From: Leptolyngbyaceae cyanobacterium
GTDB taxonomy: Bacteria; Cyanobacteriota; Cyanobacteriia; Phormidesmidales; Phormidesmidaceae
Direction: 5' to 3'
DNA length: 64,000 nucleotides
Assembly (NCBI GenBank): GCA_965263355.1
Contig: CBDHHL010000056.1
Span: 2,467,867 to 2,531,866 of the forward strand
Position numbers and translations under genes: made by a program. Of this stretch, positions 19,768-57,072 are shown piece after piece (the first letter of the stretch is position 1; the number at the start of each line of letters is the position of its first letter). A model generated the notes under the pieces. The model saw nothing but the letters and a program-made list of their open reading frames with translations, did not search any database and was not told the origin of the DNA.

Positions 19768-19955
19768 TGTCCATTGCTAAACTATACCCACTAGTATGAC
19801 CATATGCATTTTTGATTAACAGTATGTAGCTTTAGGGCAACGTACGTCTATTCAATAACTGATGCTACAGGGCTGCTTAGAATTTATAGTTCCAAAATCC
19901 TACAGTGAACGTTTGATAATTAGAAATGTCTAGCATTAGCATTTGGCATAGCACC

Positions 19956-22900: not shown

Positions 22901-24923
22901 TGTTGAGATTGGAGGGGTAGGTCGTGGCGGTAATGTTGAAGTGACGACCAGGAATCTAGAAGTAAGCAATGGCGCACAGCTCCTGGCATCAACTTTTGGA
23001 GAAGGCGATGCAGGAATTGTGATGCTAGATATTGAAGAAACAGCACGCTTTGATGGGGTCAACCCTGCAACAGGGATTAATCCTACCAGTGCTGCCAGTA
23101 GTGTTGAACAGGGAGGGGTAGGTCGTGGCGGTAATGTTGAATTAGCCGCTAGAAATCTAGAAGTAACCAACGGAGCACAGATCTCTGCATCAACCTTGGG
23201 TGAGGGAGATGCAGGTAATGTAATTCTTGATATTGAAGAAACAGCTCGCTTTGATGGGGTCAACCCTGTAACAGGGATTAATCCTGCTGGTGCTGCAAGC
23301 ACTGTTGAACAGGGAGGGGTAGGTCGTGGCGGTAATGTTAAAGTGACGGCTAGAAATCTAGAAGTAACCAACGGAGCACAGCTCAGTTCAGAAACATCTG
23401 GAGAGGGTGATGCGGGCAATGTGATTCTTGAGATTGAAGAAACGGCTCATTTTGATGGAGTAAATCCGATAACAGGATTTTCTCCTAGTGCTGCAAGAAG
23501 CAGTGTTGCATCTGGAAGTGTAGGTCATGGCGGTAATATTGAAGTGGCGGCCAGGAATCTGAATGTAACCAATGGGGCTCTATTGCTAGCATCAACATTT
23601 GGAGAGGGTGATGCGGGTAATGTGATTCTTGAGATTGAAAGGATGGCCCGCGTTGATGGAGTGAATCTTATTACAGGCCTTAATGTTAGTACGGTGGGCA
23701 GTAGTGTTGAGACCGATGGGGTAGGGCGTGGCGGCGATGTTGAGCTAACAGCCAGGAATCTGGAGGTGACCAATGGGGCAATGCTGAGTGCAGCAACCTT
23801 TGGGGAGGGAGATGCAGGAAATATTATTCTTGATATTGAAGAAACAGCTCGCTTTGATGGAGTGAGTCCGATCACAGGTTCTAATTCTAGTGCTGTGGGC
23901 AGTAGTGTTGAGATAGGTGGAATAGGACGTGGCGGCAATGTTGAACTAACAGCCAGAAATCTGGAAGTGACCAATGGGGCACTGCTGACTGCGGCAACCT
24001 TTGGAGAGGGGGATGCAGGAAATATTATTCTTGATGTTGAAGAAACAGCTCGCTTTGATGGCATGAATCCGATCACAGGGGCTGTGAGTCCAACTTCTGC
24101 AACCAGCCTAGTTTTCCTAGGTGCTACAGGAAATGGTGGTGATATTGAAGTAACGGCTACTAATCTTGAACTTACTAATGGGGGAATATTAGCAACATCG
24201 AGTTTTGGTGAGGGGGATGCGGGCGATATAGTGTTGATTATTCGCGATCGCATTCAACTCCAAGATGGCATTATTGCAACTAATGCAGAGTTTAATGCTG
24301 GTGGACAAATTCAAATTGAAGCAGGCAACATTTTTCTGTTTGGTGATGGCGACATCCAAACCTTTGTTAACTCTGGTGCCAATAATGGTGGCAACATTAC
24401 CATCAACGCCAATGCCCTTGTTGCCTTCGACGATAGTGATATTCTCGCCTTTGCGGCTGACGGTCGCGGCGGCGATGTAGATCTCAGTCAAACTGCCTTC
24501 TTTGGCCAAGACTTTTCCTTTGCTCCCCCTGGCACTGACCCCCGTACCCTAGAAGGCAATGACCGGGTCGATATTAACGCTACAGGTCGCCTAGCCTCCG
24601 GAACAATCACCCTGGCCGATGTTAGTTTTATCCAAGACAGCTTGACCGAACTACCCGACAATCTGGTCAATCCTGAAGCACTGGTCGCCAATAGTTGTAT
24701 TGCTCGTAGGCGTGATACGGATAGCAATTTGGTCATCACAGGCAGTGATGGTCTGCCTGTACAGCCCAATCGCCTGCAAGCGTCCTATGAGCTAGGTGAA
24801 ATTCGCTCGTTTACAGAACCTAGCTCGGCAGAGGCTCATAGCCCAATCACTGAACCACACAGTACCTATCGATTAGCGGATGGTCGGCTTGTACTAGGGC
24901 GTGAGTGTGAGCCTGACCATTAA
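19956..24923 (+). CDS. filamentous haemagglutinin N-terminal (TPS) domain protein, tandem paralog
   Basis: Same architecture as 15601-19767 with more repeats; the start MLLSRLSS matches the paralog. Confidence 0.9.
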   Translation: MLLSRLSSQICTILLVPIGLLPLSAQAQIIPDQTLGSETSNIVNDQLIRGDRADLIEDGATRGDNLFHSFSEFNVNSGQRVYFFNPVGIESILSRVTGENPSAINGTLGVDGPASLFLINPNGLVFGEAAVLDVTGSFYGTTAEAVTIGNGVFSAVDPGQSQLLAVSPSISFWNYLTDTSGEVVNRGALAIGGDLILAGNRLDLQGQVAAAGDVSLLATDTVQIRDTAEVPFIGFAGGDLLVQGNQQVDIVALSHPESGLFSNGNMVLRSASQVGGDAHYLSGGDFRIEQLDGSNGELFSPIDPIIRALGDVTIGAYIGGSLHIIAGGSVRIDAVIINAVDPGSLSIDFLQENIELSDGTVVSIDGGTQPTLDVRAGVLPESIGNPPLEMVTGLNPLTDSLFMLDLTDSPSNANIEIGDVFIDASDGLVLLTNQYSPNTLLNGDILIETRQLDFGGVVAGDLSTVGGQIIFDSRNNINVVDSLIATSSVNLDGGGITLLAENDIALESPQNKITGLLSTIPPDVTSMGGSIRINAQNLELRDGSAISTEIFGNGPAGNVILNIEGAASFDGVNLVTGAIGGISSVIRPGSSGLGGKIELTASNLEVTNGAQLNASTFGEGNAGNVILNISETARFDGVDAVTGIFSGAGSSVLLGGVGRGGNVEVNARNLEVANGAQLIASTFNEGDAGSVLLNIEETARFSGVDAVTGAVSGAGSGVEADGIGRGGNVEVNARDLQVTGGALLFTSTAGEGDSGNVILNIEETARFEGVSSVTGVGGGVRSSVEPSGIGRGGNIEVTAGNLDVTNGAQLLASTFGQGNAGNVVLDIEETANFDGINPLTGLSPTGVGSNIELGGIGRGGNIEVTAGNLNVTNGAQLLASTFGQGNAGNVVLDIRETARFDGVDAVNGIVSGTGSSVEAEGVGRGGDIELTARNLEVSNGAQLLASTFGEGDAGNVILNIEEISRFDGVSPVTGIGSGARSSVEIGGVGRGGNVEVTTRNLEVSNGAQLLASTFGEGDAGIVMLDIEETARFDGVNPATGINPTSAASSVEQGGVGRGGNVELAARNLEVTNGAQISASTLGEGDAGNVILDIEETARFDGVNPVTGINPAGAASTVEQGGVGRGGNVKVTARNLEVTNGAQLSSETSGEGDAGNVILEIEETAHFDGVNPITGFSPSAARSSVASGSVGHGGNIEVAARNLNVTNGALLLASTFGEGDAGNVILEIERMARVDGVNLITGLNVSTVGSSVETDGVGRGGDVELTARNLEVTNGAMLSAATFGEGDAGNIILDIEETARFDGVSPITGSNSSAVGSSVEIGGIGRGGNVELTARNLEVTNGALLTAATFGEGDAGNIILDVEETARFDGMNPITGAVSPTSATSLVFLGATGNGGDIEVTATNLELTNGGILATSSFGEGDAGDIVLIIRDRIQLQDGIIATNAEFNAGGQIQIEAGNIFLFGDGDIQTFVNSGANNGGNITINANALVAFDDSDILAFAADGRGGDVDLSQTAFFGQDFSFAPPGTDPRTLEGNDRVDINATGRLASGTITLADVSFIQDSLTELPDNLVNPEALVANSCIARRRDTDSNLVITGSDGLPVQPNRLQASYELGEIRSFTEPSSAEAHSPITEPHSTYRLADGRLVLGRECEPDH

Positions 24924-42668: not shown

Positions 42669-43826
42669 CTACAGCCGCTCCCATGGATATGGCGTTCCAG
42701 ATCTAGCGCGCTGCCACAGAGGGCTCAAAATCCAAATTAAGATAAACGGCAGTAGGGCAAACCACAGCGTTTGATAGTTAAACAGGTCAAATAGGCCAAA
42801 GAGCTGTCGGGGAATCGGAGTGGTATTCCAGAATGCACCAACAGCTATGGCTAAGCCCATGGAACCTGTACTCAAGCCCATGGAAGACAGTTTTTTCAAC
42901 CCCGTGAGTCTTAAAAATTTGGGATAAAACCGCTCATAGAGAGTTTGCCAATCGGGAAACGCAGCATATAGGCTCAGCACCGATATAAAGGGAATGCCCA
43001 ACAGCAGCGTGTTAGCACTGTGAAAGATGGGGGTTATCCTTAAAATTATGGCTTGGGCCATACGGCTAAAAAGGGTTAGAACAAATACCCCTTCAAACAG
43101 TAAAACGCCATACTGGGTTGGAATCGCTAAGAGATCAGTGCGACCTAGCTGAGGACCAAGGGAATGGATCGGAAACCCATTTTTGAGATGACTCTCTACT
43201 CCTTTAGTGAGAACAAAATCACCCACAAAGTGAGGATTGGCTAGCCAATCTACCTGAATACACTTTGTTATGGTTGCCGATAAAAACAAGAGAGAGATAA
43301 TCACCAACAGCCCCCGAGCGGGCCAAATGTAACGCCAGGAAGACACTTTAGGATCAACAGTAGGCCTGCCTTGTTTTTGTCTCAGTAATGCATCGATTGA
43401 ATAGGTGGCCCCCCAGTTAGACAACAGCATAAACAAGGGGACATAAAATGTTGTGACTAGTATGGTGCGTTCTTGGGTAAGCAGTCCGGTACGGAAAATA
43501 GCTAACCCAAATCCCATAAGCAATGTGGTCAGGGTTGCTAGCCGAGTTTTGTACCCTATCAGTAACAAGACTAATGCCATTACCAAGAGAATTTCCATGG
43601 TGGGGTAGGCAATACTGGGCAGGGGTGATACGCCTCTAAATAGTATGGTTGGCTCCCACAGACTAGTTGGCACCATACTCAGTTCACTAAACTGCATATG
43701 ACTGAGAAACCACAGATAGAAAAGACTGTACACAATGCGATAAAGCCCCATGCGACCGGCAGCATTTTGGGCCGGTCTTGTCAGCCAATGAACATAGCAG
43801 TGCTCAACACGCTGAAAAAAGTTCAT
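42669..43826 (-). CDS. HTTM-like multi-TM membrane protein (copy A)
   Basis: GLYRI, LLIGYKTR, YSIDA; paralog of 55418-56578. Confidence 0.75.
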   Translation of the reverse strand: MNFFQRVEHCYVHWLTRPAQNAAGRMGLYRIVYSLFYLWFLSHMQFSELSMVPTSLWEPTILFRGVSPLPSIAYPTMEILLVMALVLLLIGYKTRLATLTTLLMGFGLAIFRTGLLTQERTILVTTFYVPLFMLLSNWGATYSIDALLRQKQGRPTVDPKVSSWRYIWPARGLLVIISLLFLSATITKCIQVDWLANPHFVGDFVLTKGVESHLKNGFPIHSLGPQLGRTDLLAIPTQYGVLLFEGVFVLTLFSRMAQAIILRITPIFHSANTLLLGIPFISVLSLYAAFPDWQTLYERFYPKFLRLTGLKKLSSMGLSTGSMGLAIAVGAFWNTTPIPRQLFGLFDLFNYQTLWFALLPFILIWILSPLWQRARSGTPYPWERL

Positions 43827-43832
43827 AGGCGG

Positions 43833-44318
43833 TTATTGCGAGAGCATGGAGTTAATGGCATCAGCGTTGAAACTGTCTACCAGAATGGTTTGCGTTGGCT
43901 GACCCATATCAATGGGGGGATCTTGGTCAAAGTCAACTTTCCAGACGTACTGCCAGGCGTCGATCTGTTTAATTTCAGTATCGAGGACAAAGTCAACTTG
44001 ACGGATCAGGTAGGGCTGGTAAATAGCTTTTTGCTCATCGGTACCGGTGATGGCGCGGTAAATCAGCTGGTGCCCAGCGGCCTGTCTGGATGAATCGTCA
44101 TCAATGGTGTAAAGGTCCATAGGACGTAGGATGTGTTGCTGACCATCACTGGCCTGGACATGCAGTTCAAGGCGACTGGTTTCGGTCGGTGGATCATAGT
44201 TACCGCTGGAGTACATTTCCCACCAGATAAACGGCCATACACCTCCTCCCAAGGCCATCAAGAGGAAAGAGATACCGAATGTGAAATATTTGGCTACCCG
44301 TAGATCCTGATCATCCAT
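43833..44318 (-). CDS. hypothetical partner protein (WPFxWWxMY motif), copy A
   Basis: Paralog of 56599-57072; 6 bp upstream of the HTTM-like gene. Confidence 0.75.
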   Translation of the reverse strand: MDDQDLRVAKYFTFGISFLLMALGGGVWPFIWWEMYSSGNYDPPTETSRLELHVQASDGQQHILRPMDLYTIDDDSSRQAAGHQLIYRAITGTDEQKAIYQPYLIRQVDFVLDTEIKQIDAWQYVWKVDFDQDPPIDMGQPTQTILVDSFNADAINSMLSQ

Positions 44319-44531
44319 GGGATTTAGTTTATCTCATGACTGCTCACTAATTTGGGATAAATGTGTACAAGACTTTGCAGGAGTCTCAAAATTATGAGGC
44401 ATTTCAAAGAACAGTTAAGCTCTGTCAAATCAGAAGCAATACATTGATTAGTGAGACATGAGAATTACATCAGAGACCGCACTCTCAAGCAAGCTTGAGT
44501 AGATGCCAGCAGCGCAACTAGACAAATTGCA

Positions 44532-44615
44532 TCGTAACGAGGAGCTGAGCGGTGGCCAGAATTTTAGATCTACACCTAGAGTATTCATTCCGCCCACTCC
44601 TGCGTAGGGTTAGGC
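44532..44615 (-). other. attC-like recombination site 1 (84 bp, degenerate)
   Basis: Minus strand GCCTAAC-cctac-gcaggagtgg...ccgctcagc-tcctc-GTTACGA, starting 3 nt after the retropepsin stop codon. Confidence 0.7.
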
Positions 44616-44618
44616 GAC

Positions 44619-45026
44619 TCATTCAGCGTTTGGATTGACGTCAAACTCCATTTTGGAGCGATAGAAGCACACGTCAAATTCCATAAAAAAGTTGGTTTGA
44701 CCAAGAATAACTGGGATATTTTCAGCTCTCGCCCAGGCAAAGGCTAGCCGTGCAGAACCGCAACCTTCGACATCTGCCATGGTAAACAGAGGCATGGCTG
44801 GTTGGCCTCCTAGGTTACCTGCCAGTTGAATTACAGCTTTTTTATCATCCCAAGTCGCTCCCAGCTCAAGTCCGACTTCATAAGGCAAGACGTTTACTGT
44901 AGCGCCACTGTCTACTAATCCAACTACCTCTACGCTGCGGTTTTGATAATTGAGGAATAATGGAATGCGAGGCAGGCTATCAAACTCATTTTGGGACGAG
45001 TCAGTCGTTGAATATCTGAAGCGCAT
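44619..45026 (-). CDS. retropepsin-like aspartic protease
   Basis: GLVDSGA active-site motif; ILGQTNFF. Confidence 0.85.
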   Translation of the reverse strand: MRFRYSTTDSSQNEFDSLPRIPLFLNYQNRSVEVVGLVDSGATVNVLPYEVGLELGATWDDKKAVIQLAGNLGGQPAMPLFTMADVEGCGSARLAFAWARAENIPVILGQTNFFMEFDVCFYRSKMEFDVNPNAE

Positions 45027-45042
45027 ATCTGAGCCACCCTAA

Positions 45043-45246
45043 TCAATCAGCTGCTGGCATGGCTTGCATCAGAATAGCGCCTGCACCAAAAGCATTGTAA
45101 GGCGTTGGCAAAAAGTAAGTCTTGAAAGGCTCGAATGGTGAAATATTCATATCACTACAGAGATCAGCTGCTAGAAGCCTTACCAGTTCTAGTTTTTCTG
45201 ACTCTGGCAATTGCCTAAGTGTAGGTAAAAGATCCGCTAAAGTCAT
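45043..45246 (-). CDS. small hypothetical protein upstream of the retropepsin gene
   Basis: MTLADLLPTLRQLPESEKLELVRLL, an antitoxin-like small helical protein. Confidence 0.65.
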   Translation of the reverse strand: MTLADLLPTLRQLPESEKLELVRLLAADLCSDMNISPFEPFKTYFLPTPYNAFGAGAILMQAMPAAD

Positions 45247-45352
45247 ACACAAGCCTCGATGGATTAGCCTATACCTCTAGCATAGTGTAGCTGAAGGAAG
45301 TCAGCGTTGCTCTAGCTATTGGGCCACCTGATTTTTGGAGTGCTCGCCTTCA

Positions 45353-45991
45353 TTAACGAAGTTTTGGCAGAACTGTTTTTTCCAATTTATCTGCAATGCG
45401 AACGTATGCTAGCAAGGGATTACCTAATCCGAAGGGTAGTGCCTTAATAATATCTCTATCAATTCGATAAACTCTAGAACCAATTCGGAAAATAACATCT
45501 CGATCCTCACGTGCTTTTACACGTTCTCTTAATCGTCTAATCTCTTCACTGATTGAACTTTCACCAACTTGCTCATTTAGCAAAACTAATTCTCTATCGA
45601 GATTCTCAAGTTCATCTAAAATTCTTGTAGCATCTCGTTCTAAGCTATTTATCTTATCTAAAGCAGCTTATCGCTGTGACTCAAGTTTTATACTTTCTGA
45701 AAGTCTTAATCGCTCTGCTTCCAAAATTTGAATCTTCTCTTCCTGAGTTTTTGCTTGCTCTATCAACCTTTCAATTTCTGGAACTTTAGCAAGCTGTTGA
45801 ATAATTTCGCCATCAGAACGACTAATTGCATATCCCAGCAAGGCTAAGCCAGTAGGAGCCGCAGTAGCTGAGGCGATACCAAACCAAACGACAAAACGAT
45901 TATCTTTTCCAGAACGAATCCCAAGGTAAACGGTTCCAGTAATAAGGCCAGTTGCGATTAATGCTGCAAGAATTTGCTTTATCGAAATCAT
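45353..45991 (-). pseudogene. membrane-anchored coiled-coil protein with an in-frame nonsense codon
   Basis: ORFs 45668-46024 and 45353-45583 share one frame; a single TAA at 45668-45670 separates ...ESQR from AALDKINSLERD... Confidence 0.75.
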
Positions 45992-46027
45992 TGAGGTTAA
46001 GTGCAACTTCAGGCAGTGATGCAAGCC

Positions 46028-46114
46028 GACTAACGTTCTCGCTTAACGGACGTAGATCACCTTTGCATCTCAACTCTATCTTGGATTCGTTCCGGTGCAG
46101 CGGGTTTGTTAGAG
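46028..46114 (-). other. attC recombination site 2 (87 bp); R'' box interrupted by an IS
   Basis: Minus strand CTCTAAC-aaacc-cgctgcaccggaac...gtccgttaagcg-agaac-GTTAGTC. Confidence 0.82.
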
Positions 46115-47436
46115 CAGCCCAAGGAAAAAAGCATCCAATGGTTACCTGATAGCTATGTTGTTGCGGTGACGGGAATTTCAACGAACCATTTTTCTAATCC
46201 TGGCAGTCGTTGCCACTGTTTTTCCAGCTCATCCATAGCACTCGCCGACAAGCTAACCCCGGTCTCGTATATCTGAGTGATCAATTTCACCACCGGGTGA
46301 TTGCCCTTAAAAGTTAACGTGGCCGCAAAGTTCAGTACCGTCTCAACGCTGTCTAGCAGATCCCCATTCCAATGTTGTTCTAACCAACCAAAGGTGCGCT
46401 CAACGGGATTGTATTTACTGTGATAGGGGGGATAATAGGCTAACTGCAAGGGAATGTGTTCTCGATTCACCCACTGCACCAATCGAAACATAAATTGAGT
46501 GCGTCGTGACTGGTTTTCGGGACCGTTGTCGAGATTAATCACCCACTTTTGAATCTGGGGAAACTCAACTTTAATGTCGTTCCACCACTGTTCAAGTAGG
46601 TCAACGAGGCAGTCTGCGGTGACCTTGGAGGTCACAAAGAACAAAGATAAACGGTCGTATTGAGGCAAATAAATCCCCACAGGTGTCAGCGTCTGAGTGG
46701 GCTTAAAATCATGGTCTGCTGCCAGGGTGGGAACCCGATTTTTTTCCCCCTCGGTCATAGTCGCCGATATTAATGGTCGCCTTAGCATCGATGGAAATGC
46801 GCAAGGTCGATTCATCGGCATCCGCCTCCGCATTGACCCGACCCACTTGGTCAAAAATGGCGTCAGTTTCGGGAATTTTCTTTTGGGGTTTGGCTTTGAT
46901 CACTCGTCTTAAACAATAGTTCATCTCATTGAGCCGTTGACGAATCACTTCTGAGGTCGGTAACTCGTCGTCACGATACCCCGTTTGCTCGATCAATTGA
47001 CGACGTACCTCGGGAGCACTGATACGGGTATACAACCGCTCACTGCGTAAACTCGGATCTGCTTGGGTGAAGGGATCGACTATTGCACGAATATCGTCTT
47101 GTAACTTGGGCAACCTCGACTCCACTCGTTTACGTCCTCGACGGCCAAAGGCATCTTCAATCGGAGTCCCACTGGTTAACTCCTGCATCCCTTTACGAAT
47201 CGTGCCACGGTTCCATCCCAACGTCTGTTCGGCACGGGTTTGGCCTCCTATCCCCAACTCCTTGACCACCTTGGCCATAAACTGACGACGATGGGTGCCC
47301 TTTAGCTGGTTGGCGGTTTCTATAAATAGGGCTTTGAGAGAATCAGTTAATTCAAGAGACGTGGATGCCACAGAGCTGATTTAGAAATAGTCGACTGCTC
47401 TGACTATTATAGGATGATTTATTTATTTGGCAGCTC
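46112..47436 (-). mobile_element. ISAzo13-family insertion sequence
   Basis: Imperfect TIRs GAGCAGCCCAAGGAAAAAAGCATCC and (reverse complement) GAGCTGCCAAATAAATAAATCATCC; TA on both flanks; split transposase. Confidence 0.85.
46153..47371 (-). CDS. ISAzo13-family DDE transposase, two ORFs joined by a probable -1 frameshift
   Basis: PQKKIPETDAIF, ISIDAKA, DHDF, DNGPEN, YYPPYHSKYNPVER; GGGGGAAAAAAA slippery tract at 46739-46750. Confidence 0.88.
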
Positions 47437-47534
47437 TAAAGTTAGCAGTGGTGCAATCTAGCTGCAATATTCCCTTCATTACAACTCCTCATGTTGCTTG
47501 CTAGCACATGGAGCTTATTCTATTGAAACTCTAT

Positions 47535-49127
47535 TTATAATCGGCAAACCTCTAATCGAGTAAATAGGCTTGGCACCACTTTGACCCATCCCCCAGGTCG
47601 AGGTAAGTGTCCTAACGGAGCAGATAACCCAAAGGTCAAGTCATAGTAGGGTATCCAAATACCTTTTGATCGCCACCCAACAAGGTCTCCAAACCTTTTA
47701 TAGGCATTATCATCGTAATCATCATCAAACCTACCACCACATTCTAGATAAATTTGTTTCTGAATACTGAAACCAAATCTACCTTCACTATATTTCACCC
47801 ATAACTGGTCAAGCGTGCGGAGATCTACACAAGAAAATTGCTTAATCTCCTCTTCCCTAATCGAGTCACCTTCTCGCCGACCAACTTGCTTAAGTATGGT
47901 TATATATGTTTCATAATTAGCTGCTTTCCAGTTTTGAGATCTCAGTAGATCCCGTAACTGACTGTAGTCTAGCCCTCGATCAGAACTGAGATCATCATAA
48001 GAGGCTTTAACACTTGAAGATACTGAATTGGTGTGAATAGATAGATCAGAAATTACCTGTTCTTCGATTTCTGTAATGTCTTCTTCTCTCAACCCCAGAA
48101 GTTGCTGAAAATCCTTTAAATCAGATATCGTATCTGTATCCAAAGGATAACCAGAATCGTTTACAACTTCAATAAAAGTATTCTTATATTCTTCTAATCT
48201 ATTCTGCAACTCTCGGTGGGGTTTCAAGATTTCTTCTTCAATCTGTCCTGCTTCTGCTTCAGAAATCCCCAACCTTCCGCGAATAACGTGCAATCTTCGT
48301 CTGGCAACTGGCGATAGGTCGACCTTGTTCCTTTCCAAGGTTAAGTTCGTTACTTCTTTACGATATAGTAACTTTGGATTATCTTGTGGAGATCTTGCTA
48401 GAATAATTTTGTAGCCTTCCCTAGCAACATAGATTTCTGGCTGCATTGAGGGAACAACTTCTAGAACTCTTTGACGGGCGTATTGATACAACTCATCAGC
48501 TGTAATTAATCCATCCATATCCTGATCAGCTACCCCTGTTGCAATACCTTCAACCAAGAAACGGGTAAAGATTGAAAGATTAGATTCTTTTTGTTCAAAA
48601 GAGTATTCTACAGACGAGGAAGAAGTAAGGATAACTCTTCCACTACCACCTAACTGTGAAGCAACATCAATGCTATCGTTGCCTTTTACAGCTACAGTCG
48701 ACATGTCTCGAGCAAAAGCCCCACTGAAACTACAATCTAGGATAATAACTTGTCTTCTAGAGCGGCTAATGCTCATTACCTCTTGAATGAAATTAGCAGA
48801 AACAGCGGTAGATCTGACAAGCCTTTGATTACTCTTTCGAGTATTAGTGGTAGTCAGGTAAAGTCTGCGCATTTCATCTTTAACAGCGTGACCTGAGAAA
48901 TATAACAATACCAAGTCATCTTTATGAGAAGCAGAAAATAAAATTTCTATCTCTTGCTCCATCTGCTGCCTACTTGGGTCAAGCAATACAGATACTTGAT
49001 CAAAACCTCCTAACTCCGGATCCCTTAAAACGCGAGACATTGCTTCAGTGTCTGCCCTTGCAGCAGGAAGTGGAGAAAAATCTGATTCATACTCACTTAC
49101 TCCAATTAACAGTGCGGCTTTATTCAT
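47535..49127 (-). CDS. caspase-like (C14) peptidase domain + helical linker + GUN4-like domain
   Basis: KAALLIGVSEY, LLYFSGH, IILDCSFSG; GUN4-like DYSQLRDLL..WKAANYET..DLRTLDQLWVKYSEGRFGFSIQK..APLGHLP. Confidence 0.9.
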   Translation of the reverse strand: MNKAALLIGVSEYESDFSPLPAARADTEAMSRVLRDPELGGFDQVSVLLDPSRQQMEQEIEILFSASHKDDLVLLYFSGHAVKDEMRRLYLTTTNTRKSNQRLVRSTAVSANFIQEVMSISRSRRQVIILDCSFSGAFARDMSTVAVKGNDSIDVASQLGGSGRVILTSSSSVEYSFEQKESNLSIFTRFLVEGIATGVADQDMDGLITADELYQYARQRVLEVVPSMQPEIYVAREGYKIILARSPQDNPKLLYRKEVTNLTLERNKVDLSPVARRRLHVIRGRLGISEAEAGQIEEEILKPHRELQNRLEEYKNTFIEVVNDSGYPLDTDTISDLKDFQQLLGLREEDITEIEEQVISDLSIHTNSVSSSVKASYDDLSSDRGLDYSQLRDLLRSQNWKAANYETYITILKQVGRREGDSIREEEIKQFSCVDLRTLDQLWVKYSEGRFGFSIQKQIYLECGGRFDDDYDDNAYKRFGDLVGWRSKGIWIPYYDLTFGLSAPLGHLPRPGGWVKVVPSLFTRLEVCRL

Positions 49128-51033
49128 GGTCTATTTCATGCGTAACGAATGCTAGTAAACTATGAATCTCATCGTTATCTGACTCTATATCTAATGCTTT
49201 TCTAAGTTGCTCTTTGGCTAGCTTAAACTCTTTTTGTAATCTTAAGTCTCGACCATATCCCAAAAGTGCTTGAACATAATTTTCCTCGGTTTTTAATGGA
49301 TCAATCTGAAAAGCCCTTGTATAGAGTGCTGAGGCTCTACCAAAATCCTCAACCTCTAAGTACGCTGCTGCCATATCAAATAGAGCACTAAAATGATTGG
49401 AATTTAAATCTAGTACCTGGTTATATAAATCAATTACAATTGTTATGTCACCTTTTCGATGCAAATTAGTCGCTCTTTGATAGATACGCTCAGCTTTTGG
49501 ATCTAGTTTCTCCAGTTCCCTTATTTCCTGGTAAAGTGGGTATCGATTGACTAACCAATGACGGACAAGTTCAATTTTGACTTTATACGTCGAAGCTTTG
49601 TAATCCTTTACAGAGTCTAGAAAATTCCATTCAACAAGACGTTTTTCAGCATCAACTAATGGTTTAGTCAAAACAACTCCATACTCCTTTAATAACTCTC
49701 CTGGAAGAGCTAATTTAGACTCTACATTGGGTAATCCAAGTGTTAGAATCTGTCCAATATGAATTTGCTGTAATTCTGTACTGACTACAATTGCTCCTAA
49801 TCTTGGATCATAAGAGGCGATCCAGCTTACCGAAGGCAACTTACGCATGAGATAGCTATATATCCAGACTGGGGCAGGACCAGTAATAACTATTCCAGTA
49901 TTCGTATTAATTTCTTCAGGCAGCTCTAATTTAGAGAGAACTTTCGGCTCAATACGTCTGTCCTCAGAGAGGATCTCTATGGTCAACCATTGATAAGTTA
50001 AGCCTTTGTAATCCTGTGGTTCACTCAGCTTTAAACGAACTGAGACATTAGATGTTTGACTAATATTACTTTGAATATCTAAAGCATTGAATTCTTTATT
50101 AGCGTTTTTTTGCGCTTCTGCCACAGCAGAAAAGATAACTCTTTCAGGAATTGGCAATCCGTCTCGAAACCATGCTAATCCTGCTTCACCAATCTCAATT
50201 GCCCTATCTATAATTTTCCTTACATCTCCACGAATGATTCTCCAATTTTGTCGATCTCGTGCATACCCAAACAGTGCAAAGCATATTAATTGCGTAAAGT
50301 AAGGATGTCTCGCTGAGAGATCAAGAATTTCTTGTATAGCTGCTGAATCATATTTCAGGATCCCTTCAGCAGGTTCAACAATTAACTGCTTAGCACTTGT
50401 TTCATCAAGTAAACCAATCTCTCGACTAGGTGCTTCTTTAAATAAACTAAGTAACTTGGGCATATCATCCAGCCGTCGCCCGACTACTGGAATGAGAATT
50501 AATTGCTTTTGTCGATAAATAATTGACTGTAAATAGGGGAAGAAATTTTCAACTGCTACGTCTGACTTATCACTATTTAAGACATCAAACTCATCCATTA
50601 AGAAGACCAAGTGTCTGCCTGATAATACTCTATAAATCTTAGGCAGAAAAACACTATGAAAAATACTTGAGTCTGTCTTCAATTCCTCTACAGAAGGTGA
50701 TGTTACGTCTTTTAATTGCAATTCAAGTTGATCGACAATCTCCACAGCAATATAGTGCAAAATATCACTAAGATGTGCTTGGCTTCTATCCTGAAGATCA
50801 AGCAAGACAAAAGCAAATTCATCTAATCCAACACAAGCTGGAATTTGAGAGAGTACTGAGGACTTGCCAATGCGCCGTTGGCCATGTAGCAAAATAACCT
50901 TCGCGCCTGACTTCAAATTGTCCTCAACAAATTGAAATAGACGTTCTCGCCCGAAGAAAAGCTCTGGCTTATCGATTGGGCTACCAATGTCGTAAGGATT
51001 TCTTCGAGATTGTGAAGACAACATGAGCATCAA
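49120..51033 (-). CDS. STAND-like AAA+ ATPase with an inserted Csx3/Crn3-like domain and C-terminal TPRs
   Basis: NPY..FFGRE, GQRRIGKS, FLMDEFD, RHPYFTQ; Csx3-like GIVITGPAPVWIYSYL..WIASYDPRLGAIVVST (about 49735-50040); TPR-like helices. Confidence 0.85.
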   Translation of the reverse strand: MMLMLSSQSRRNPYDIGSPIDKPELFFGRERLFQFVEDNLKSGAKVILLHGQRRIGKSSVLSQIPACVGLDEFAFVLLDLQDRSQAHLSDILHYIAVEIVDQLELQLKDVTSPSVEELKTDSSIFHSVFLPKIYRVLSGRHLVFLMDEFDVLNSDKSDVAVENFFPYLQSIIYRQKQLILIPVVGRRLDDMPKLLSLFKEAPSREIGLLDETSAKQLIVEPAEGILKYDSAAIQEILDLSARHPYFTQLICFALFGYARDRQNWRIIRGDVRKIIDRAIEIGEAGLAWFRDGLPIPERVIFSAVAEAQKNANKEFNALDIQSNISQTSNVSVRLKLSEPQDYKGLTYQWLTIEILSEDRRIEPKVLSKLELPEEINTNTGIVITGPAPVWIYSYLMRKLPSVSWIASYDPRLGAIVVSTELQQIHIGQILTLGLPNVESKLALPGELLKEYGVVLTKPLVDAEKRLVEWNFLDSVKDYKASTYKVKIELVRHWLVNRYPLYQEIRELEKLDPKAERIYQRATNLHRKGDITIVIDLYNQVLDLNSNHFSALFDMAAAYLEVEDFGRASALYTRAFQIDPLKTEENYVQALLGYGRDLRLQKEFKLAKEQLRKALDIESDNDEIHSLLAFVTHEIDHE

Positions 51034-51099
51034 CCCTTAGCCATGAACTTGAGGAGTAAGACTATACATAAAGCACGCATTGAAATAATAAACAAAAAT

Positions 51100-52401
51100 C
51101 TAGCCTGATACAAACCCTTTCGGAACAGCACTAACTAGCTTACTAGTCCATTCAATGATAGATGGTACTTCATCTTTGTGCTGCCATAAATAACGTATCC
51201 CACCCCTAATCTGCTCTGCTTGCTTAGTGCTCATCAAATTAAGAAAAACCTTTTGACGTTGTTGAAGCTCTTCCTCATTACTATTTTCAATTTCTTTAAT
51301 AACCCACCATTCCATCAACGATGAGGCAAATGTGTAGTTATGTCTACCCTCCTGGGAAATTCGGATGATGACTCCTCGTTGTTCTAAATCCGTCAGTTCA
51401 CGCTCCCGTTGACTAAGGATGATGCTGATATCACCCAAATCATAAATTTTCCCCTTTATTCGACCCTTCAAATTAGATAAAGCAATTAACATCAAAAGCA
51501 TTTGTTCTTCTTGGTTTGACATTTCCCACATCTGTTGAAAAAATTGCTCAACCGAACTTAGGAAGTCTCGTGCAAATGCTTCGGGATCGGGTATTTCTCC
51601 AGTCTGAAGTTTGTCATATAAAAGATACCCTGCATGTTGAATTAATGCAGGATGTCCATCAGTCATTTCTCTAATCCCATCTCGTAGTTCTGCTGTCATA
51701 GGCATGCAGCCTAGCAGTACATCAATTTCGCTATCAGTAAATGGCTTTAAAGGTTGGAATAAATAGTGGTTATACCATGGAGACTTATCTGGAGAAAGCT
51801 TTGGACCAAGCTCGTTAAGACGCCGAAATGAAGTGACAATAATTGAAAGACAGCCTTTACTCTGAACCGCTAAGTTGCGAGTTTCGCTTAGGAAAATTTC
51901 TATGCTGCTTTCTTCATATTGGTCATGTGAACGGAAAGCAGCATCATAGTTATCTAGCAATAGCACTAAAAACTTCTTCTGTTTTCCTACCCGCTTCAAG
52001 AGCTGGCGTAACTCATCCTTGGTTACTTCAGCCTTTTCTAGAGATTGATCGATCCAGGCTTGTAATGCACTACTACCGTCAGCAACCTCATCCTTGATCA
52101 GGATTAGAATTTCCCTCCAAAAGGCAGCTGGCAGGAAAGGATATATGCTCAAGCAATCTAGATATACAACAATAGACTCAGAACGTTGGCATCCATAATG
52201 TTGCCAAATTTGAGGAGAAAGCAACAACTCCAAAAAAGATGATTTCCCCATTCCCGAACCACCCCATATTGCCAGACAGCTACGACTAGCGATTCGATCA
52301 AACGCAACACCAAGTTCAGATTTCCATCCAACGAAGCTTTCTGGTGAAACTAGCTTTCCAGGAGAAAAAGGATTTTTTGTCATGGCTTTTTTTGGGTCCA
52401 A
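51100..52401 (-). CDS. STAND-like AAA ATPase (partner)
   Basis: NPF..FVGW, GGSGMGKS, LLLDNYD, GHPALIQ. Confidence 0.85.
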   Translation of the reverse strand: MDPKKAMTKNPFSPGKLVSPESFVGWKSELGVAFDRIASRSCLAIWGGSGMGKSSFLELLLSPQIWQHYGCQRSESIVVYLDCLSIYPFLPAAFWREILILIKDEVADGSSALQAWIDQSLEKAEVTKDELRQLLKRVGKQKKFLVLLLDNYDAAFRSHDQYEESSIEIFLSETRNLAVQSKGCLSIIVTSFRRLNELGPKLSPDKSPWYNHYLFQPLKPFTDSEIDVLLGCMPMTAELRDGIREMTDGHPALIQHAGYLLYDKLQTGEIPDPEAFARDFLSSVEQFFQQMWEMSNQEEQMLLMLIALSNLKGRIKGKIYDLGDISIILSQRERELTDLEQRGVIIRISQEGRHNYTFASSLMEWWVIKEIENSNEEELQQRQKVFLNLMSTKQAEQIRGGIRYLWQHKDEVPSIIEWTSKLVSAVPKGFVSG

Positions 52402-52492
52402 AGGTCCAAAGGTCTCGATGAAAATTTTTCCTTTAACTAGCTTAGTGCCACAGTCAGTTTTTGGGCACTACCTCTATACAGAACGAGAAGCA

Positions 52493-52579
52493 GCCCAACG
52501 ACTAAGCTCACCGGACACAGATCCTCTTGGCCACTCGACCGATTACCTTTCACCGTTCCGGTGCGGCGACTTGTTAGCC
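52493..52579 (-). other. attC recombination site 3 (87 bp)
   Basis: Minus strand GGCTAAC-aagtc-gccgcaccggaac...gtccggtgagc-ttagtc-GTTGGGC; similar to site 2; begins 13 nt after a stop codon. Confidence 0.85.
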
Positions 52580-52766: not shown

Positions 52767-53012
52767 CCAGTTTGTGGCTCGATTGATGACGATCACCACC
52801 TCCCTCAAGGCTCAGAGTAGGAATATTCTTGATTTCCTGACCCAGACTTACTCGGCTGCGCGTACCGGAAAAGAACCGCCTTCTTTGATCCTACAAAACC
52901 AACGGTAGGGACAGTTACGTTTTTATTTAAGCAATATCCTGAAAATCTAAGCCTTACTGATGAAAATGAGAGAGTCTTTATCAAAGCTTTTCTTGATTGA
53001 TTATTATTATGA

Positions 53013-53460
53013 TCATGGTCCCCAAACCGATACGACATTATCGTCTTGTGTCACATCTCGTTTAGATCCTTTAACATACCAGTTATGATAGCCTCGTCTT
53101 TCAGGATCGTTATTTGTAATTGTTCCTATATTTAGTCCATATACGACATATCCCCAGCCTCCAATCTCTGCTGTTCCCAACCTAACTGCTGAATTACTGA
53201 TTGAGTAATCTAAGTTCGTAACTAAAACAGCAACAGCTTTGATTTTATGCTTCTTAGCTTTGTCAAATACATCCGTTCCATACTTCACAACTAAGCTGCC
53301 CCTGCGCGAATCTGCTTCCTCACGTTTTCTATGTGCTTCTTCAAAAGCTAACGCTGTATTGGCAATACCAGTGGCAGCACTGATCATTGCAGCTGTGGCA
53401 CTTTGCGCACCTGCGGCAGCACTTATCAAGCCTGCTATGGCTGCTATTTGAAGGGGCATG
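53013..53460 (-). CDS. hypothetical protein in the first cassette; weak resemblance to Bacillus YvgO-type proteins
   Basis: Ala-rich N-terminus, then GTITNND..GYHNW..G; approximate start at MPLQ (ORF track start 53567). Confidence 0.55.
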
Positions 53461-53623
53461 ACAAAAGACCTCGTAAAAGAAAAAGAAAGTGAACCTTGTT
53501 TTCTAACTATAGGGCATCTCGATCGATTAAATATCAGCGTTGTATGGAATGCCGAGTCAGTTTGCACATCATTGCTCCTTCACAGATGATCTAGGCAAAC
53601 TGCTCAGGTTCGGGAACAAAGCC

Positions 53624-54391
53624 GTCGGGTAAGGAAGCAGGTTTTAAATATATCCCGCTTCCTCCCCTCAGAACCGTACGTACAACTTTCACTGTATACG
53701 GCTCAAGCAATGTCTTGAAATTCAGTTTTTCCGATTCTTAACAACCTTTTCAGATTGTCCTGATGGTTACGTTTACAAGCCGAAGCTTGCACCTAACTTT
53801 TCCCAATCAGTTAAGTTTCATCTCACCTTCATTCAAGTCCATCACCTATCCCACGTCAGCCCCCTTTCAGGTTGGGCAAATGCCCTATCTGCCCCGTTAT
53901 GAATTCCGGTTGCCTTTCGGCTGGCAGCTTTCGCTTCTTGGGATATCCTGTGCCCGCTAGAGAGTTCAGCTTTGGTTGCCCTCCGCTTACCTGGAAAATA
54001 AAGTATTTTCAGGACTCTATCGGGGTTTCCTCGTTCCGCACGGGGTGGAGATATGATTGCTTTAGGATTCCTCTTTACTCCGAGAGCGGGATGTTCTTGA
54101 TTGGCATTTAGACGCTACCAACCCCCATATGCTCCAATATTCTCGTATCAGCCATTTCGAGAACTCACATTAACGAAGCCTCATCAAGGATTCACTTGCG
54201 TTATCCTTAGCAATCTTGCCCTAGCCTGCACCCTCTTGTTGGCTCAGAAGATACTGCGACATTTAACCTCGTCTGCTGATGCTGCCCTCCCATTACTGGT
54301 CGAACATTCCGAGGCGGACATCCGCCTGAACACTGGCGGGGAGAGTCATTTGGGAGTCTCTCCAACTCCCCCGAACGACTTCGAGTCGCGC
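53624..54391 (-). mobile_element. ORF-less group II intron (IIB-like ribozyme, 768 nt)
   Basis: 5' end GCGCGAC (GUGYG variant); 34-nt domain V GAGCCGTATACAGTGAAAGTTGTACGTACGGTTC; domain VI ending CCCGAC; candidate EBS1/EBS2 pair with the upstream exon; no RT ORF. Confidence 0.88.
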
Positions 54392-54410
54392 GCATAACTA
54401 TGAGTTATCC
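54392..54410 (-). other. attI-like simple site
   Basis: Minus strand GGATAAC-TCATA-GTTATGC (L box, 5-bp spacer, R box) at the head of the attC array, in the same orientation. Confidence 0.65.
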
Positions 54411-54540
54411 AGACTAAGTCTGGATAACTACCTTCCAGCCGGAGTTATCCAGAAACTTTCTGGATAAACACCTTATAAGCAATTAACCCAGAAACTTTCT
54501 GGATAATACCCCCAGAGTCGGAGTTATCCAGAAAGCTTTA
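54403..54540. repeat. four palindromes of about 27 bp (AGTTATCCAGA-N5-TCTGGATAA) at about 40-bp period
   Basis: Copies start at 54403, 54443, 54482 and 54522; the last is a half site. Confidence 0.85.
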
Positions 54541-54749: not shown

Positions 54750-54863
54750 TTGACGAAAGCCTAACCCCCGGTCTAAAGTAACCCAATGCTGCAAGTGCAG
54801 CTGTTCTACTAGAACCTAATAACTTGGCACCATCGGCAGGTGCTCGCAACACCTAACCGATGG
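54750..54863 (+). promoter_or_regulatory. putative sigma70 promoter followed by a leader hairpin
   Basis: TTGACG-N18-TAAAGT; CCATCGG..CCGATGG stem at 54830-54863. Confidence 0.4.
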
Positions 54864-54995
54864 CTGACCCGCGGATTACCGTGCAATCCTTGGGATGGGC
54901 TTATTATGCCTCAGCCCCTGCGATTTGCCATGCATCGCGGGGGCTGAGCCGTTAGGTTCTGGCTTTCCTTGTTGTTTCTCTGGAGAACCAGAACC

Positions 54996-55417: not shown

Positions 55418-56578
55418 TTAGAGGCGTTCCTGGTTGGATAAAGACTGATGGTGCTGCCTACGTTGCCAAAGTGGACTGACAATCCACAGAACTATAAACG
55501 GCAGGAGTGCAAACCATAGGGTTTGATAGCTAAGTACGCCAAAGAGGCCAAAGAGTTGACGCGGGATGGCTGTGGTATTCCAAAGCAGGCCAATGAGTAC
55601 TGCCAAACCGACGGAGCCAGTCACTAACAGTGAGGGAGATAGTTTGTCTAAGCCCTTTACTCGTAATAGCTTGGGATAAAACCGTTCATAGAGCATTTGC
55701 CAATCTGGAAAGGCAGCATAGATGCTTAAAACTGTTGTAAATGGAATGCCCAACAGTAGTGTATTGAAGCTGTGAAAAATAGGAGCTAAGCGCAAGATGA
55801 TGGCCTGGGCAACCCGATTAAAGAGAACCAAAATAAACGCTGTTTCAAACAGTAGTACCGCATATTGGGCTGGAATGGCTAAGGCAGCGGTGCGACCCAG
55901 CTGAGGCCCCAGGGGATAAATGGGAAACCCATTACTGAGATGACTTTTAACCCCTTTTGCCAGGATAAAATCCCCCACCAATTGCGGTTCAACCAGCCAG
56001 GAGACTTCCAAAAATTTGACGATGGCGGCTGATAAAAACAAGATTGCTAAGATCACCAACAGTCCCCGTGCTGGCCAGATATAACGCCAGGAAGACTCTC
56101 GGGGAGATGGAACTAGCTGTCCTTGCTTTTGTTTGAGTACAGCATCGATGGAATAGGTCGCCCCCCATTTAGAAAACAACATAAATAAGGGAACATAGAA
56201 CACAATCAGTACGATGGTTCGCTCTTGAATTAAAAAGCCAGTGCGAAACCCAGCTAACCCAAACCCGACAATTAAAACAACCAGATTGGCCAGACGGGTT
56301 TTATAGCCCAGCAATAGCAAGATCAATGCCATCACCAAAAGCATTTCTAGGGTTGCATAGCCAACATCTGGCAGTGGCGATAACACTTTTAGCAAAATGG
56401 TAGGTTTCCATTGGTTAGTGGGCACCAGGCCAAGTTCCGCAAATCTGAGAGGACTGAGAAACCATAGATAGAAGACGCTATATATGATGCGATAGAGACC
56501 CATGCGGCCAGCTGCATTTTTCGCAGGGCGTGTGAGCCATTGACCATAGCGACGCTCAAGCTGCTGGAAAAATTTCAT
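55418..56578 (-). CDS. HTTM-like multi-TM membrane protein (copy B)
   Basis: Paralog of 42669-43826. Confidence 0.75.
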   Translation of the reverse strand: MKFFQQLERRYGQWLTRPAKNAAGRMGLYRIIYSVFYLWFLSPLRFAELGLVPTNQWKPTILLKVLSPLPDVGYATLEMLLVMALILLLLGYKTRLANLVVLIVGFGLAGFRTGFLIQERTIVLIVFYVPLFMLFSKWGATYSIDAVLKQKQGQLVPSPRESSWRYIWPARGLLVILAILFLSAAIVKFLEVSWLVEPQLVGDFILAKGVKSHLSNGFPIYPLGPQLGRTAALAIPAQYAVLLFETAFILVLFNRVAQAIILRLAPIFHSFNTLLLGIPFTTVLSIYAAFPDWQMLYERFYPKLLRVKGLDKLSPSLLVTGSVGLAVLIGLLWNTTAIPRQLFGLFGVLSYQTLWFALLPFIVLWIVSPLWQRRQHHQSLSNQERL

Positions 56579-56598
56579 AGGGGCTATCTAGACAACAC

Positions 56599-57072
56599 TT
56601 AGTTTGTAGTATGAGCAGTAAAGCGATCAATAAAAACGCTTTGGGTTGGCTGTTGAATATCTAGCGGCGGGTGTTGCTCAAAGTCAACATGCCAAACGTG
56701 ACGCCAGGCCTCCACCTGCTCGATTTTGGTGTCGAGCAGAAATTCCAGTTGTTGAATCAAGTAAGGGCGAGAAATTGCTTGCTGTTCTGCATTGCCTTCT
56801 ACGGCGGCTTGCATCAGTCTATGCCCTGGTGTTTGGTTAGAGGTATCGTTATCTAGGGTGTAGAGGTCCATCGGACGTAATACATGCTGATGGCCAGCAC
56901 TATCTAAAACATGGAGTTCGAGACGACTTACTTTAGTCGGTGGCGTGTAACCATCGCTGGTGGAGTACATGTCCCACCAGGTAAATGGCCATAGGCTACC
57001 ACCCAGCACTAACAGCACAAAGGCCATGCCTGCAGTGAAATATTTAGCGAACCGCAACTCCTGAGTTTCCAT
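56599..57072 (-). CDS. hypothetical partner protein, copy B
   Basis: Paralog of 43833-44318 (LRPMDLYT shared). Confidence 0.75.
   Translation of the reverse strand: METQELRFAKYFTAGMAFVLLVLGGSLWPFTWWDMYSTSDGYTPPTKVSRLELHVLDSAGHQHVLRPMDLYTLDNDTSNQTPGHRLMQAAVEGNAEQQAISRPYLIQQLEFLLDTKIEQVEAWRHVWHVDFEQHPPLDIQQPTQSVFIDRFTAHTTN

Follow-up and report, generated by a model that had tools for sequence, protein, structure and literature searches.

A candidate mobile conflict module in a cyanobacterium: paired STAND-type ATPases, one with an embedded histidine-less Csx3 domain, and a caspase-GUN4 protein

What is a domain of the Csx3 ring-nuclease fold doing inside an ATPase gene that runs directly into a caspase gene, far from any CRISPR locus? 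This question is raised by a stretch of 64,000 nucleotides (nt) from a Leptolyngbyaceae cyanobacterium (assembly GCA_965263355.1, contig CBDHHL010000056.1; the whole stretch is hereafter called the window), in which three genes follow one another on the minus strand. Gene A (52401..51100) encodes a P-loop nucleoside triphosphatase (NTPase) of 433 amino acids (aa), the constant 5' partner of B; gene B (51033..49120) encodes a 637-aa protein built from a STAND-type NTPase, a Csx3 insert, a winged-helix-like domain and tetratricopeptide repeats (TPRs); and gene C (49127..47535) encodes a 530-aa orthocaspase in which a repeat-like middle region leads to a GUN4 domain at the C-terminus. The answer that we favour, though only tentatively, is that the operon is a mobile three-gene conflict module, most likely anti-phage, in which a STAND switch with a catalytically dead Csx3 domain drives a caspase.

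The three genes and the Csx3 domain within B

The open reading frames (ORFs) coincide exactly with those of an earlier, sequence-only reading of this DNA (the original prediction), which had reported three co-oriented low-GC genes, an 8-nt overlap between the last two, and products in the form of a STAND-like ATPase, a Csx3-like ATPase with TPRs and a caspase-GUN4 protein. All of this was borne out: the frames of B and C share 8 nt (49120-49127), the GC content is 0.38-0.39 over 48-52 kb versus about 0.44-0.48 in the flanks, and the domain calls were confirmed with Pfam and NCBIfam. The reported absence of a cas gene or CRISPR array also held, the Csx3 domain of B aside, as no further Cas family was detected in the 64-kb window by Pfam (59 window ORFs plus 4 stop-to-stop frames at 54.6-55.4 kb) and no CRISPR-like array was detected in the whole window by a short-range direct-repeat scan. 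Both A and B start at TTG in the mechanical ORF calls; the true start of A is likely the ATG at 52383, seven codons in, and a 634-aa database form suggests that B starts at the ATG at 51024. A consensus scan revealed no sigma-70-like promoter on the minus strand 5' of A, and no terminator was found 3' of C.

The Csx3 (Crn3-fold) insert occupies residues 330-435 of B (49729..50046, minus strand) and was recognized by Pfam, phmmer, a domain model and Foldseek. It matched Cas_csx3 (PF09620) over residues 356-430 with an E value of 5.4e-23 and the NCBIfam Crn3/Csx3 family TIGR02579 with 72.3 bits (cut-off 55.4), and in a phmmer search against the PDB it retrieved the Archaeoglobus Csx3 protein AF_1864 (AfCsx3) with an E value of 1.9e-13. 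Because confidence in the insert was low when B was modelled as a whole, we modelled the insert alone with a deeper, 40-row Csx3 alignment, and this yielded a predicted local distance difference test score (pLDDT) of 86.8. In Foldseek searches, the resulting model matched AfCsx3 chains (3WZG/6YUD; E 2.3e-9, TMt 0.73-0.85) as well as Cat1, a filament former bound to cyclic tetra-adenylate (cA4) (9mud; E 2.7e-4). The inserted domain therefore matches the Csx3 fold, as the original prediction had expected, and judged by sequence and modelled fold it is a true Csx3.

The residues of this domain bear on what it might do. In AfCsx3, as described in PMC7371418, the D69 face makes most of the cA4 contacts, and the histidines H57, H60 and H80, called absolutely conserved there, belong to a Mn-dependent catalytic face; H80 is described as hydrogen-bonding cA4 from a second dimer, and the H60A variant as devoid of ring-nuclease cleavage of cA4, yet still forming fibres with cA4. 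In the window insert, the D69-face positions S44, G45, R46, D69 and R71 are taken by T384, G385, P386, D409 and R411, and H57, H60 and H80 are replaced by R397, P400 and E420. The three histidines are missing from all five ATPase-embedded Csx3 domains (window copy included), which all keep G45 and D69 and carry Arg (in four) or Lys (in one) at R71; the R46 position is Arg in four of them and Pro in the window copy alone. Among 180 aligned Csx3 domains, His was found at H57 in 94, at H60 in 97 and at H80 in 93. Of the Csx3-like identity assigned by the original prediction, the fold and the residues G45, D69 and R71 stood, and the catalytic part did not, with all three histidines lost and R46 changed to Pro. 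This pattern makes the insert a candidate cA4 binder that would not cleave its ligand. B as an active ring nuclease was considered and rejected, since the histidine triad is absent. As the H60A variant forms fibres with cA4, ligand-driven polymerization would be a natural reading of a His-less domain placed inside an oligomerizing ATPase.

The NTPase module of B (residues 23-310; 50104..50967, minus strand) matched nSTAND2 with 28.4 bits (cut-off 24) in addition to AAA_16, and its Walker A (GQRRIGKS, residue 51) and Walker B (LVFLMDEFD, residue 142) motifs are intact. Downstream of the insert lie the winged-helix-like domain and the TPR arm (residues 444-637; 49123..49704, minus strand; model pLDDT 85-97), with TPRs placed by Pfam at residues about 500-635, and the NTPase and TPR parts were confident in the whole-B model. 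Gene A showed an AAA_16 match of 35 bits, an nSTAND1 match under its cut-off and no nSTAND2 match in Pfam, and it too has intact Walker A (GGSGMGKS, residue 47) and Walker B (LVLLLDNYD, residue 145) motifs.

Gene C consists of a Peptidase_C14 caspase domain (residues 3-221; 48465..49121, minus strand; Pfam E 2.8e-17), the middle region and a GUN4 domain (residues 382-510; 47598..47984, minus strand; E 1.2e-35). The caspase part was also recognized by the NCBIfam model NF047832, "caspase, EACC1-associated type", with 166.9 bits against a cut-off of 140, and its His80/Cys132 dyad is intact and invariant in six of six aligned homologues.

Recurrence of the block and evidence for joint function

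The whole A-B-C block is present in one other genome (G043), in which locus L104 (7349-12307) aligned to window positions 47536-52508 with 76% nucleotide identity by blastn. The proteins are 84% (83.6%; A), 78% (B) and 61% (C) identical, the 8-nt B/C overlap is identical, the Walker A and B motifs of both A and B are intact in this copy as in the window, and the flanks are unrelated to those in the window; Rfam gave no match in the G043 locus. Comparison of the two copies yielded ratios of nonsynonymous to synonymous divergence (dN/dS) of 0.07-0.24 in every segment, with 0.07 for A and 0.23 for the Csx3 insert, values that are rough, the synonymous sites being near saturation for A and C. By this sequence measure, every segment of the block is under purifying selection.

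The synonymous divergence (dS) itself differs along the block (window 47535-52401 versus L104 7348-12208), with approximate values of 0.7 in B, 1.4 in A and 1.6-2.1 in C. Such a gene-wise spread hints at recombination inside the block or at unlike codon constraints.

The Csx3-embedded form of B is rare. Outside the window it was found in G043 and in three metagenomic clusters (P0006, P0007 and P0008, each a singleton cluster from ENA). In genome samples that overlap one another, open frames longer than 500 aa with a Csx3 insert occurred in one of 401 genomes across the phylum (G043), in one of eight genomes of the order of G043 (again G043) and, for the order of G004, in none of 401 genomes. 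Likewise, 24 metagenome loci with a Csx3 match had neither A, nor a B-type ATPase, nor C alongside.

Fused genes join the same parts in other ways. The two most divergent Csx3-B proteins (843 and 830 aa; 47% identity) end in CHAT, a caspase-fold domain, with E values of 8e-4 and 3e-5, respectively, the match in the 830-aa protein (24.0 bits) lying at the cut-off. The second-best match of the insert among 1.84 billion representatives was a caspase-Csx3-Csx3 protein, P0125 (547 aa, on one 2.8-kb contig), in which two His-poor Csx3 domains come after Peptidase_C14. Kinase-Csx3 and Csx3-TPR-WD40 proteins were also found among the insert's matches, and an AAA_16-Csx3-Csx3 protein, P0227, resembles B in its Csx3 part alone.

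Without the insert, A and B belong to a common pair. Of 72 genome loci encoding B relatives, 67 had an A homologue directly 5' of the B homologue (same strand, ending no more than 600 nt upstream) and none had Csx3; A-B is a widespread cyanobacterial gene pair. Nine loci (L001, L002, L022, L028, L031-L033, L041 and L065) contain single ORFs of about 630-965 aa that join B-like and A-like parts, and tandem B copies and arrays such as A-B-B or A-BA-B were seen in other cyanobacteria. The NTPase part of B gave 887 matches, many of them cyanobacterial proteins of 55-63% identity whose C-termini vary; among the matches listed, these C-termini comprise TPR, WD40, kinase, periplasmic-binding or CHAT domains, and Csx3 was carried by 5 of the best 120 of the 887. 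The paired ATPases look like a rapidly diversifying family.

The caspase likewise has relatives of its own. Multi-copy proteins sharing about 45-58% identity with its caspase and middle regions were found in 53 of 401 genomes, where the C-like open frames range from 162 to 1242 aa. We inspected 20 loci, the best matches elsewhere to residues 1-375 of C, and in 12 of these (L136-L139, L142-L145, L147, L150, L152 and L153) the caspase gene starts 6-57 nt 3' of a gene whose product, conserved and about 125-143 aa long, contains a hydrophobic stretch rich in Gly. This small protein, which had no Pfam or NCBIfam match, fits the description of EACC1 in PMC7159879, the label following that description alone. 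An EACC1-like gene was detected neither in the window nor in the G043 block (best tblastn E 0.8-0.9). The relatives of C thus normally come with an EACC1-like gene and, in the 20 loci, without A-B, and the operon comes with A-B and without an EACC1-like gene, so that the operon is a hybrid; these sequence comparisons suggest that the paired-ATPase switch took the place of EACC1 as the partner of an EACC1-type caspase.

A physical link between the two halves of this hybrid was predicted by structure modelling. The complex of B residues 300-637 with C scored 0.68 (0.71, 0.62 and 0.68 in individual runs), and the best of three controls scored 0.00; of 157 solved complexes in the benchmark, 116 attained this mark, as did 2 of 215 mismatched pairs, counts that are only rough with custom alignments. 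At least 80% of the contacts agreed between B-C runs, with partner pLDDT values of at least 74. In the modelled interface, the last helix of B (residues 607-632) lies on the GUN4 domain of C (residues 405-423, 489-495 and 512-517). The B tail is strongly conserved among the three short Csx3-B proteins, and the GUN4 motifs IWIPYY and PRPGGWV are common to the window and G043 and missing from four other aligned caspase-GUN4 proteins. The GUN4 sequences matched in the PDB are named solely after GUN4 or tetrapyrrole binding, so that the modelling program seems unlikely to have reproduced a complex already solved. The model supports docking of the B tail on the GUN4 domain of C.

Boundaries and neighbourhood of the operon

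The homology between the window and G043 begins exactly at a GTTGGGC core (52499→52493) and includes a common leader 5' of A (52402..52498, minus strand; blastn). This core closes an 87-nt attC-like element (52579→52493, minus strand) that opens with GGCTAAC (52579→52573). A second attC-like element lies downstream of C in two parts, a 5' stub (47447→47440, minus strand; TGCTAAC at 47447→47441 plus 1 nt) and a 3' part (46108→46028, minus strand) ending in GTTAGTC (46034→46028). It is split by a 1,331-bp insertion sequence (IS) of the ISAzo13 family (46109-47439, minus strand) with 31-nt terminal inverted repeats, whose transposase lies in two overlapping frames (46709-47371 and 46153-46854) that may reflect a frameshift, programmed or inactivating. 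The IS is outside the three-gene system, though it interrupts the downstream boundary; minus the IS, the operon unit measures about 5.1 kb. Both attC-like elements have the same orientation, a GCTAAC start and a GTTRRRY-like end, as expected for minus-strand cassettes, and they have in common GCYGCACCGGAACG, for which the window contains two exact matches, both on the minus strand.

Other observations were less favourable to a cassette. The hairpin of the upstream element is no stabler than that of shuffled sequence (z 0.32), and a simple R''/R' hairpin scan of the window picked up neither flanking element and no array. No integron integrase was detected by Pfam in the 64 kb, including no remnant at 54.6-55.4 kb. 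G043 encodes an intact IntI (443.8 bits, cut-off 265; G043:C1:948656-949594), which is 59 kb from the operon in the wrong geometry, together with at least four degraded intI fragments elsewhere in the genome, and no sequence like the two attC-like elements was found within 20 kb on either side of the intact gene. In favour of an integron cassette, on the other hand, the G043 copy lies in a different genomic context and its boundary falls at the core site. The original prediction had placed the genes between two attC sites; two homologous attC-like elements do flank them, the downstream one being split by an IS, and the claim was weakened by the poor fold and the missing integrase. We consider an integron-type cassette in an integrase-less array plausible.

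Farther upstream, Rfam identified domain V/VI of a group II intron (53624-53706, minus strand; 66.4 bits), near which no reverse-transcriptase ORF was seen. Direct and inverted TGGATAAC/GTTATCCA repeats cluster at 54402-54534, 5' of the intron domain, and look from their sequence like an attI-type site.

Several further features were noted in the neighbourhood. The minus strand at 43833-46024 and 52805-53567 holds runs of small ORFs (69-184 aa), none of them matched by Pfam, as a cassette array would have; a possible third attC-like site (GCCTAAC...GTTACGA, about 44520-44614) follows a 135-aa ORF; and a 107-nt near-perfect palindrome (54851-54957, ACCTAAC...GTTAGGT) with attC-like core ends has a DNA fold of about -26 kcal/mol. 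Two paralogous two-gene blocks at 42669-44318 and 55418-57072 (ORFs of 385/161 and 386/157 aa; about 70% nucleotide identity; a weak DoxD match for one), 12,752 nt apart, bracket the mobile-element-rich island with the operon. At some distance, 15601-24923 encodes two adjacent exoproteins of 1388 and 1665 aa with N-terminal two-partner secretion (TPS) domains.

A proposed mechanism, its alternatives and related systems

Under the conflict-module reading, A and B would form a hetero-oligomeric STAND-type NTPase switch of the kind common in cyanobacteria, and in a rare variant a Csx3 domain devoid of catalysis would have been inserted into B, after the NTPase module and before the TPR arm. The D69 face of this domain would bind cA4 or a close relative, for instance from a type III CRISPR Cas10, without cleavage, and Csx3 dimers bridged by the ligand would drive A-B multimerization. 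The caspase, held via GUN4 at the C-terminal helix of B, would be activated by induced proximity and would cleave cellular targets, leading to growth arrest or death of the infected cell. A source of such a signal is possible in G043, where two Cmr loci each comprise Cmr2_N with palm2, Cmr3 and RAMP genes, and where both Cas10 homologues carry GGDD. The original prediction of an NLR-like sensor coupled to a caspase-fold effector fits the G043 block, the fusions and the B-C model; what had to be corrected were its points on the ring nuclease, on novelty and on the cassette.

A more ambitious form of the same idea, which we regard as unlikely, is that of a bacterial NLR-like machine gated by a CRISPR messenger. 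Here the His-less Csx3 would polymerize on cA4, nucleate an inflammasome-like A-B assembly and activate the orthocaspase; GUN4 would have been repurposed from tetrapyrrole binding as a docking adaptor, and the 5.1-kb integron-type cassette would plug a caspase death arm into type III hosts.

A number of observations weigh against the conflict-module reading. The link between the three genes rests on one other genome plus the fusions, as C's caspase was found in none of the 72 loci beside the Csx3-less B paralogues, and A or B lay within about 7 kb of the C relatives in none of the 20 loci; the neighbourhood conservation that the original prediction proposed to look for was thus seen in the G043 block and not in the relatives of B or C. 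Co-occurrence with Cas10, which it also proposed, was found in G043 in the form of the two GGDD homologues, and both Cmr loci are more than 1 Mb from the operon. In the insert, Pro occupies the cA4-contacting R46 position, loss of H80 may stop the sandwiching of a ligand, and the pLDDT in the whole-B model is below 55. The C-terminal helix of B is partly kept in the Csx3-less paralogues, and the modelled GUN4 contact may be unspecific; the caspase of P0125 has Tyr at the catalytic His position. Finally, PADLOC recognized only domain pieces (Csx3, TPR, caspase and GUN4) and gave no system-level match: A had no match, B matched via its Csx3 and TPR parts only, and C was called PD-T4-6 via GUN4 only.

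Some of these points would suit a STAND/NLR-like sensor that recognizes a phage protein through its TPR arm, as in Avs, with the dead Csx3 serving as a dimerization element, a scaffold or a bait and the caspase still acting as the effector. Hundreds of Csx3-less paralogues with an equal NTPase and variable C-termini (TPR, WD40 and others), the change of R46 to Pro and the loss of three histidines in the window insert are all in line with this alternative, as is the account in 10.1101/2025.11.14.688446 of STAND ATPases fused or linked to proteases as widespread. We nevertheless think it improbable, as G45, D69 and R71 (or Lys) are kept in all five embedded domains, the insert has a dN/dS of 0.23, indicative of purifying selection, and His-less tandem Csx3 recurs in fusions to caspase or kinase domains, as a ligand sensor in repeated use might.

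The kept binding face and the lost catalytic face could also be those of a sponge, that is, a B protein that regulates type III signalling by sequestering cA4 without cleaving it, so as to dampen or pace the response, with the caspase as an unrelated or regulatory passenger. The Csx3 family is described as regulating cyclic oligoadenylate (cOA) levels (PMC7371418), and deletion of Synechocystis slr7080, a Csx3-AAA fusion, is reported to have left plasmid interference unaffected (PMC9676260, citing Shah 2019). Such a sponge would need neither two intact NTPases nor a TPR arm nor a translationally coupled protease, no cas gene adjoins the locus, and the fusions to CHAT and caspase domains suggest that there is an output, all of which leaves little room for it.

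An equally doubtful option dispenses with phages altogether: the module would regulate proteolysis or cell death as part of normal physiology, in step with the tetrapyrrole or photosynthetic state of the cell, with GUN4 sensing porphyrins and gating the caspase and with A-B as accessory regulators. GUN4 binds tetrapyrroles and was proposed as an allosteric regulator of fused cyanobacterial enzymes (PMC7159879), and it accompanies 29 of 473 orthocaspases in 132 strains (PMC8283722). Low GC, mobile elements, two genomes with unrelated contexts and attC-like flanks do not make a housekeeping pattern, and parts such as Csx3 and STAND are characteristic of conflict systems.

That the three genes are adjacent by an accident of mobile-element traffic, with no joint function, is scarcely credible, even though A-B and the caspase family usually live apart (0/72 and 0/20 loci) in a region strewn with small orphan ORFs, an IS and a group II intron, given that G043 has the same genes, 8-nt B/C overlap and block boundaries, that all parts are under apparent purifying selection, that independent fusions (Csx3-ATPase-TPR-CHAT and caspase-Csx3-Csx3) unite them, and that the complex model passed its controls.

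Among known systems, the closest in logic is SAVED-CHAT/PCaspase of the Haliangium ochraceum type III-B locus, where, as reported in 10.1101/2023.06.23.546230, cA3 induces SAVED-CHAT filaments that activate PCaspase, with an abortive phenotype. Both would couple a cOA sensor domain to a caspase-fold protease (here by prediction), and the operon may work like a cOA-gated protease system. Compared with the system described there, the sensor of the operon is Csx3 rather than SAVED and sits inside a two-subunit STAND NTPase, the protease is an EACC1-type orthocaspase-GUN4, and no cas or CBASS gene is nearby.

The insert itself has its fold, together with G45, D69 and R71, in common with the Crn3/Csx3 ring nuclease (AfCsx3, 3WZI/6YUD; described in PMC7371418), from which it differs in lacking the three histidines, in being embedded in a 637-aa ATPase and in not lying beside a type III locus. 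Fusion of Csx3 to a P-loop ATPase is likewise a trait of the Csx3-AAA and AAA-Csx3 accessory proteins (clusters 35 and 67 in PMC6546367; Slr7080 in PMC9676260), which are described as mainly cyanobacterial and for which allosteric cOA control of the ATPase was proposed (PMC6546367). The PADLOC profile of this family (PDLC01045) matched B at positions 13-100 of 286 only (B residues 334-432), and the domain order is reversed in B, the family having an N-terminal Csx3 followed by AAA. As characterized in those accounts, the Csx3-AAA families are linked to CRISPR and come without a TPR arm, a partner ATPase or a caspase, unlike the operon.

On the ATPase side, the mobile two-gene nSTAND2 operon outlined in PMC8195603 also has adjacent STAND-type NTPase genes with a predicted hetero-multimer. 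In that description, one partner has an eroded P-loop and the effectors are GT4/HEPN; by contrast, the P-loops of A and B are both intact, no GT4 or HEPN was found by Pfam, A has no nSTAND2 match, and the effector is a separate caspase gene. As to Avs-type STAND proteins, which combine a STAND NTPase with a C-terminal repeat sensor and an effector, B offers an NTPase plus TPRs; the effector of the operon is a separate gene instead of an N-terminal fusion, and no PADLOC Avs/NLR model was matched. On the caspase side, C resembles the two-gene EACC1-caspase system as presented in PMC7159879 in belonging to the EACC1-associated type and in having a C-terminal domain of the variable kind, and differs in that the small single-transmembrane EACC1 gene is missing and the A-B pair is in its position.

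The original prediction had not recognized the three-gene architecture as a described system. In the literature searched we found no description of it, although the supplementary tables of Kaur 2020/2021 and Shah 2019 may list members. Its parts are already published, EACC1-caspases and GUN4 as components of cyanobacterial conflict systems in PMC7159879 and orthocaspase-GUN4 in PMC8283722. What appears to be new is the combination of known components, a His-less Csx3 in a two-subunit STAND switch joined to an EACC1-type caspase via GUN4, away from CRISPR and in a portable block.

The conflict-module model predicts that the Csx3 domain binds cA4 without cleaving it and that GUN4 acts as a protein-docking adaptor. 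The locus also indicates that a whole putative immune unit of three genes can be carried by a candidate integron-like cassette in cyanobacteria. Should the model be wrong, the locus would still illustrate a cyanobacterial paired-ATPase family that swaps its sensor inserts and effectors. Should it be right, cOA signalling would extend past the accessory genes beside CRISPR loci and reach mobile NLR-like modules that stand alone and have a caspase as their output, and type III CRISPR messengers, STAND/NLR oligomerization and caspase-type proteolysis, so far separate themes, would be joined in one system.

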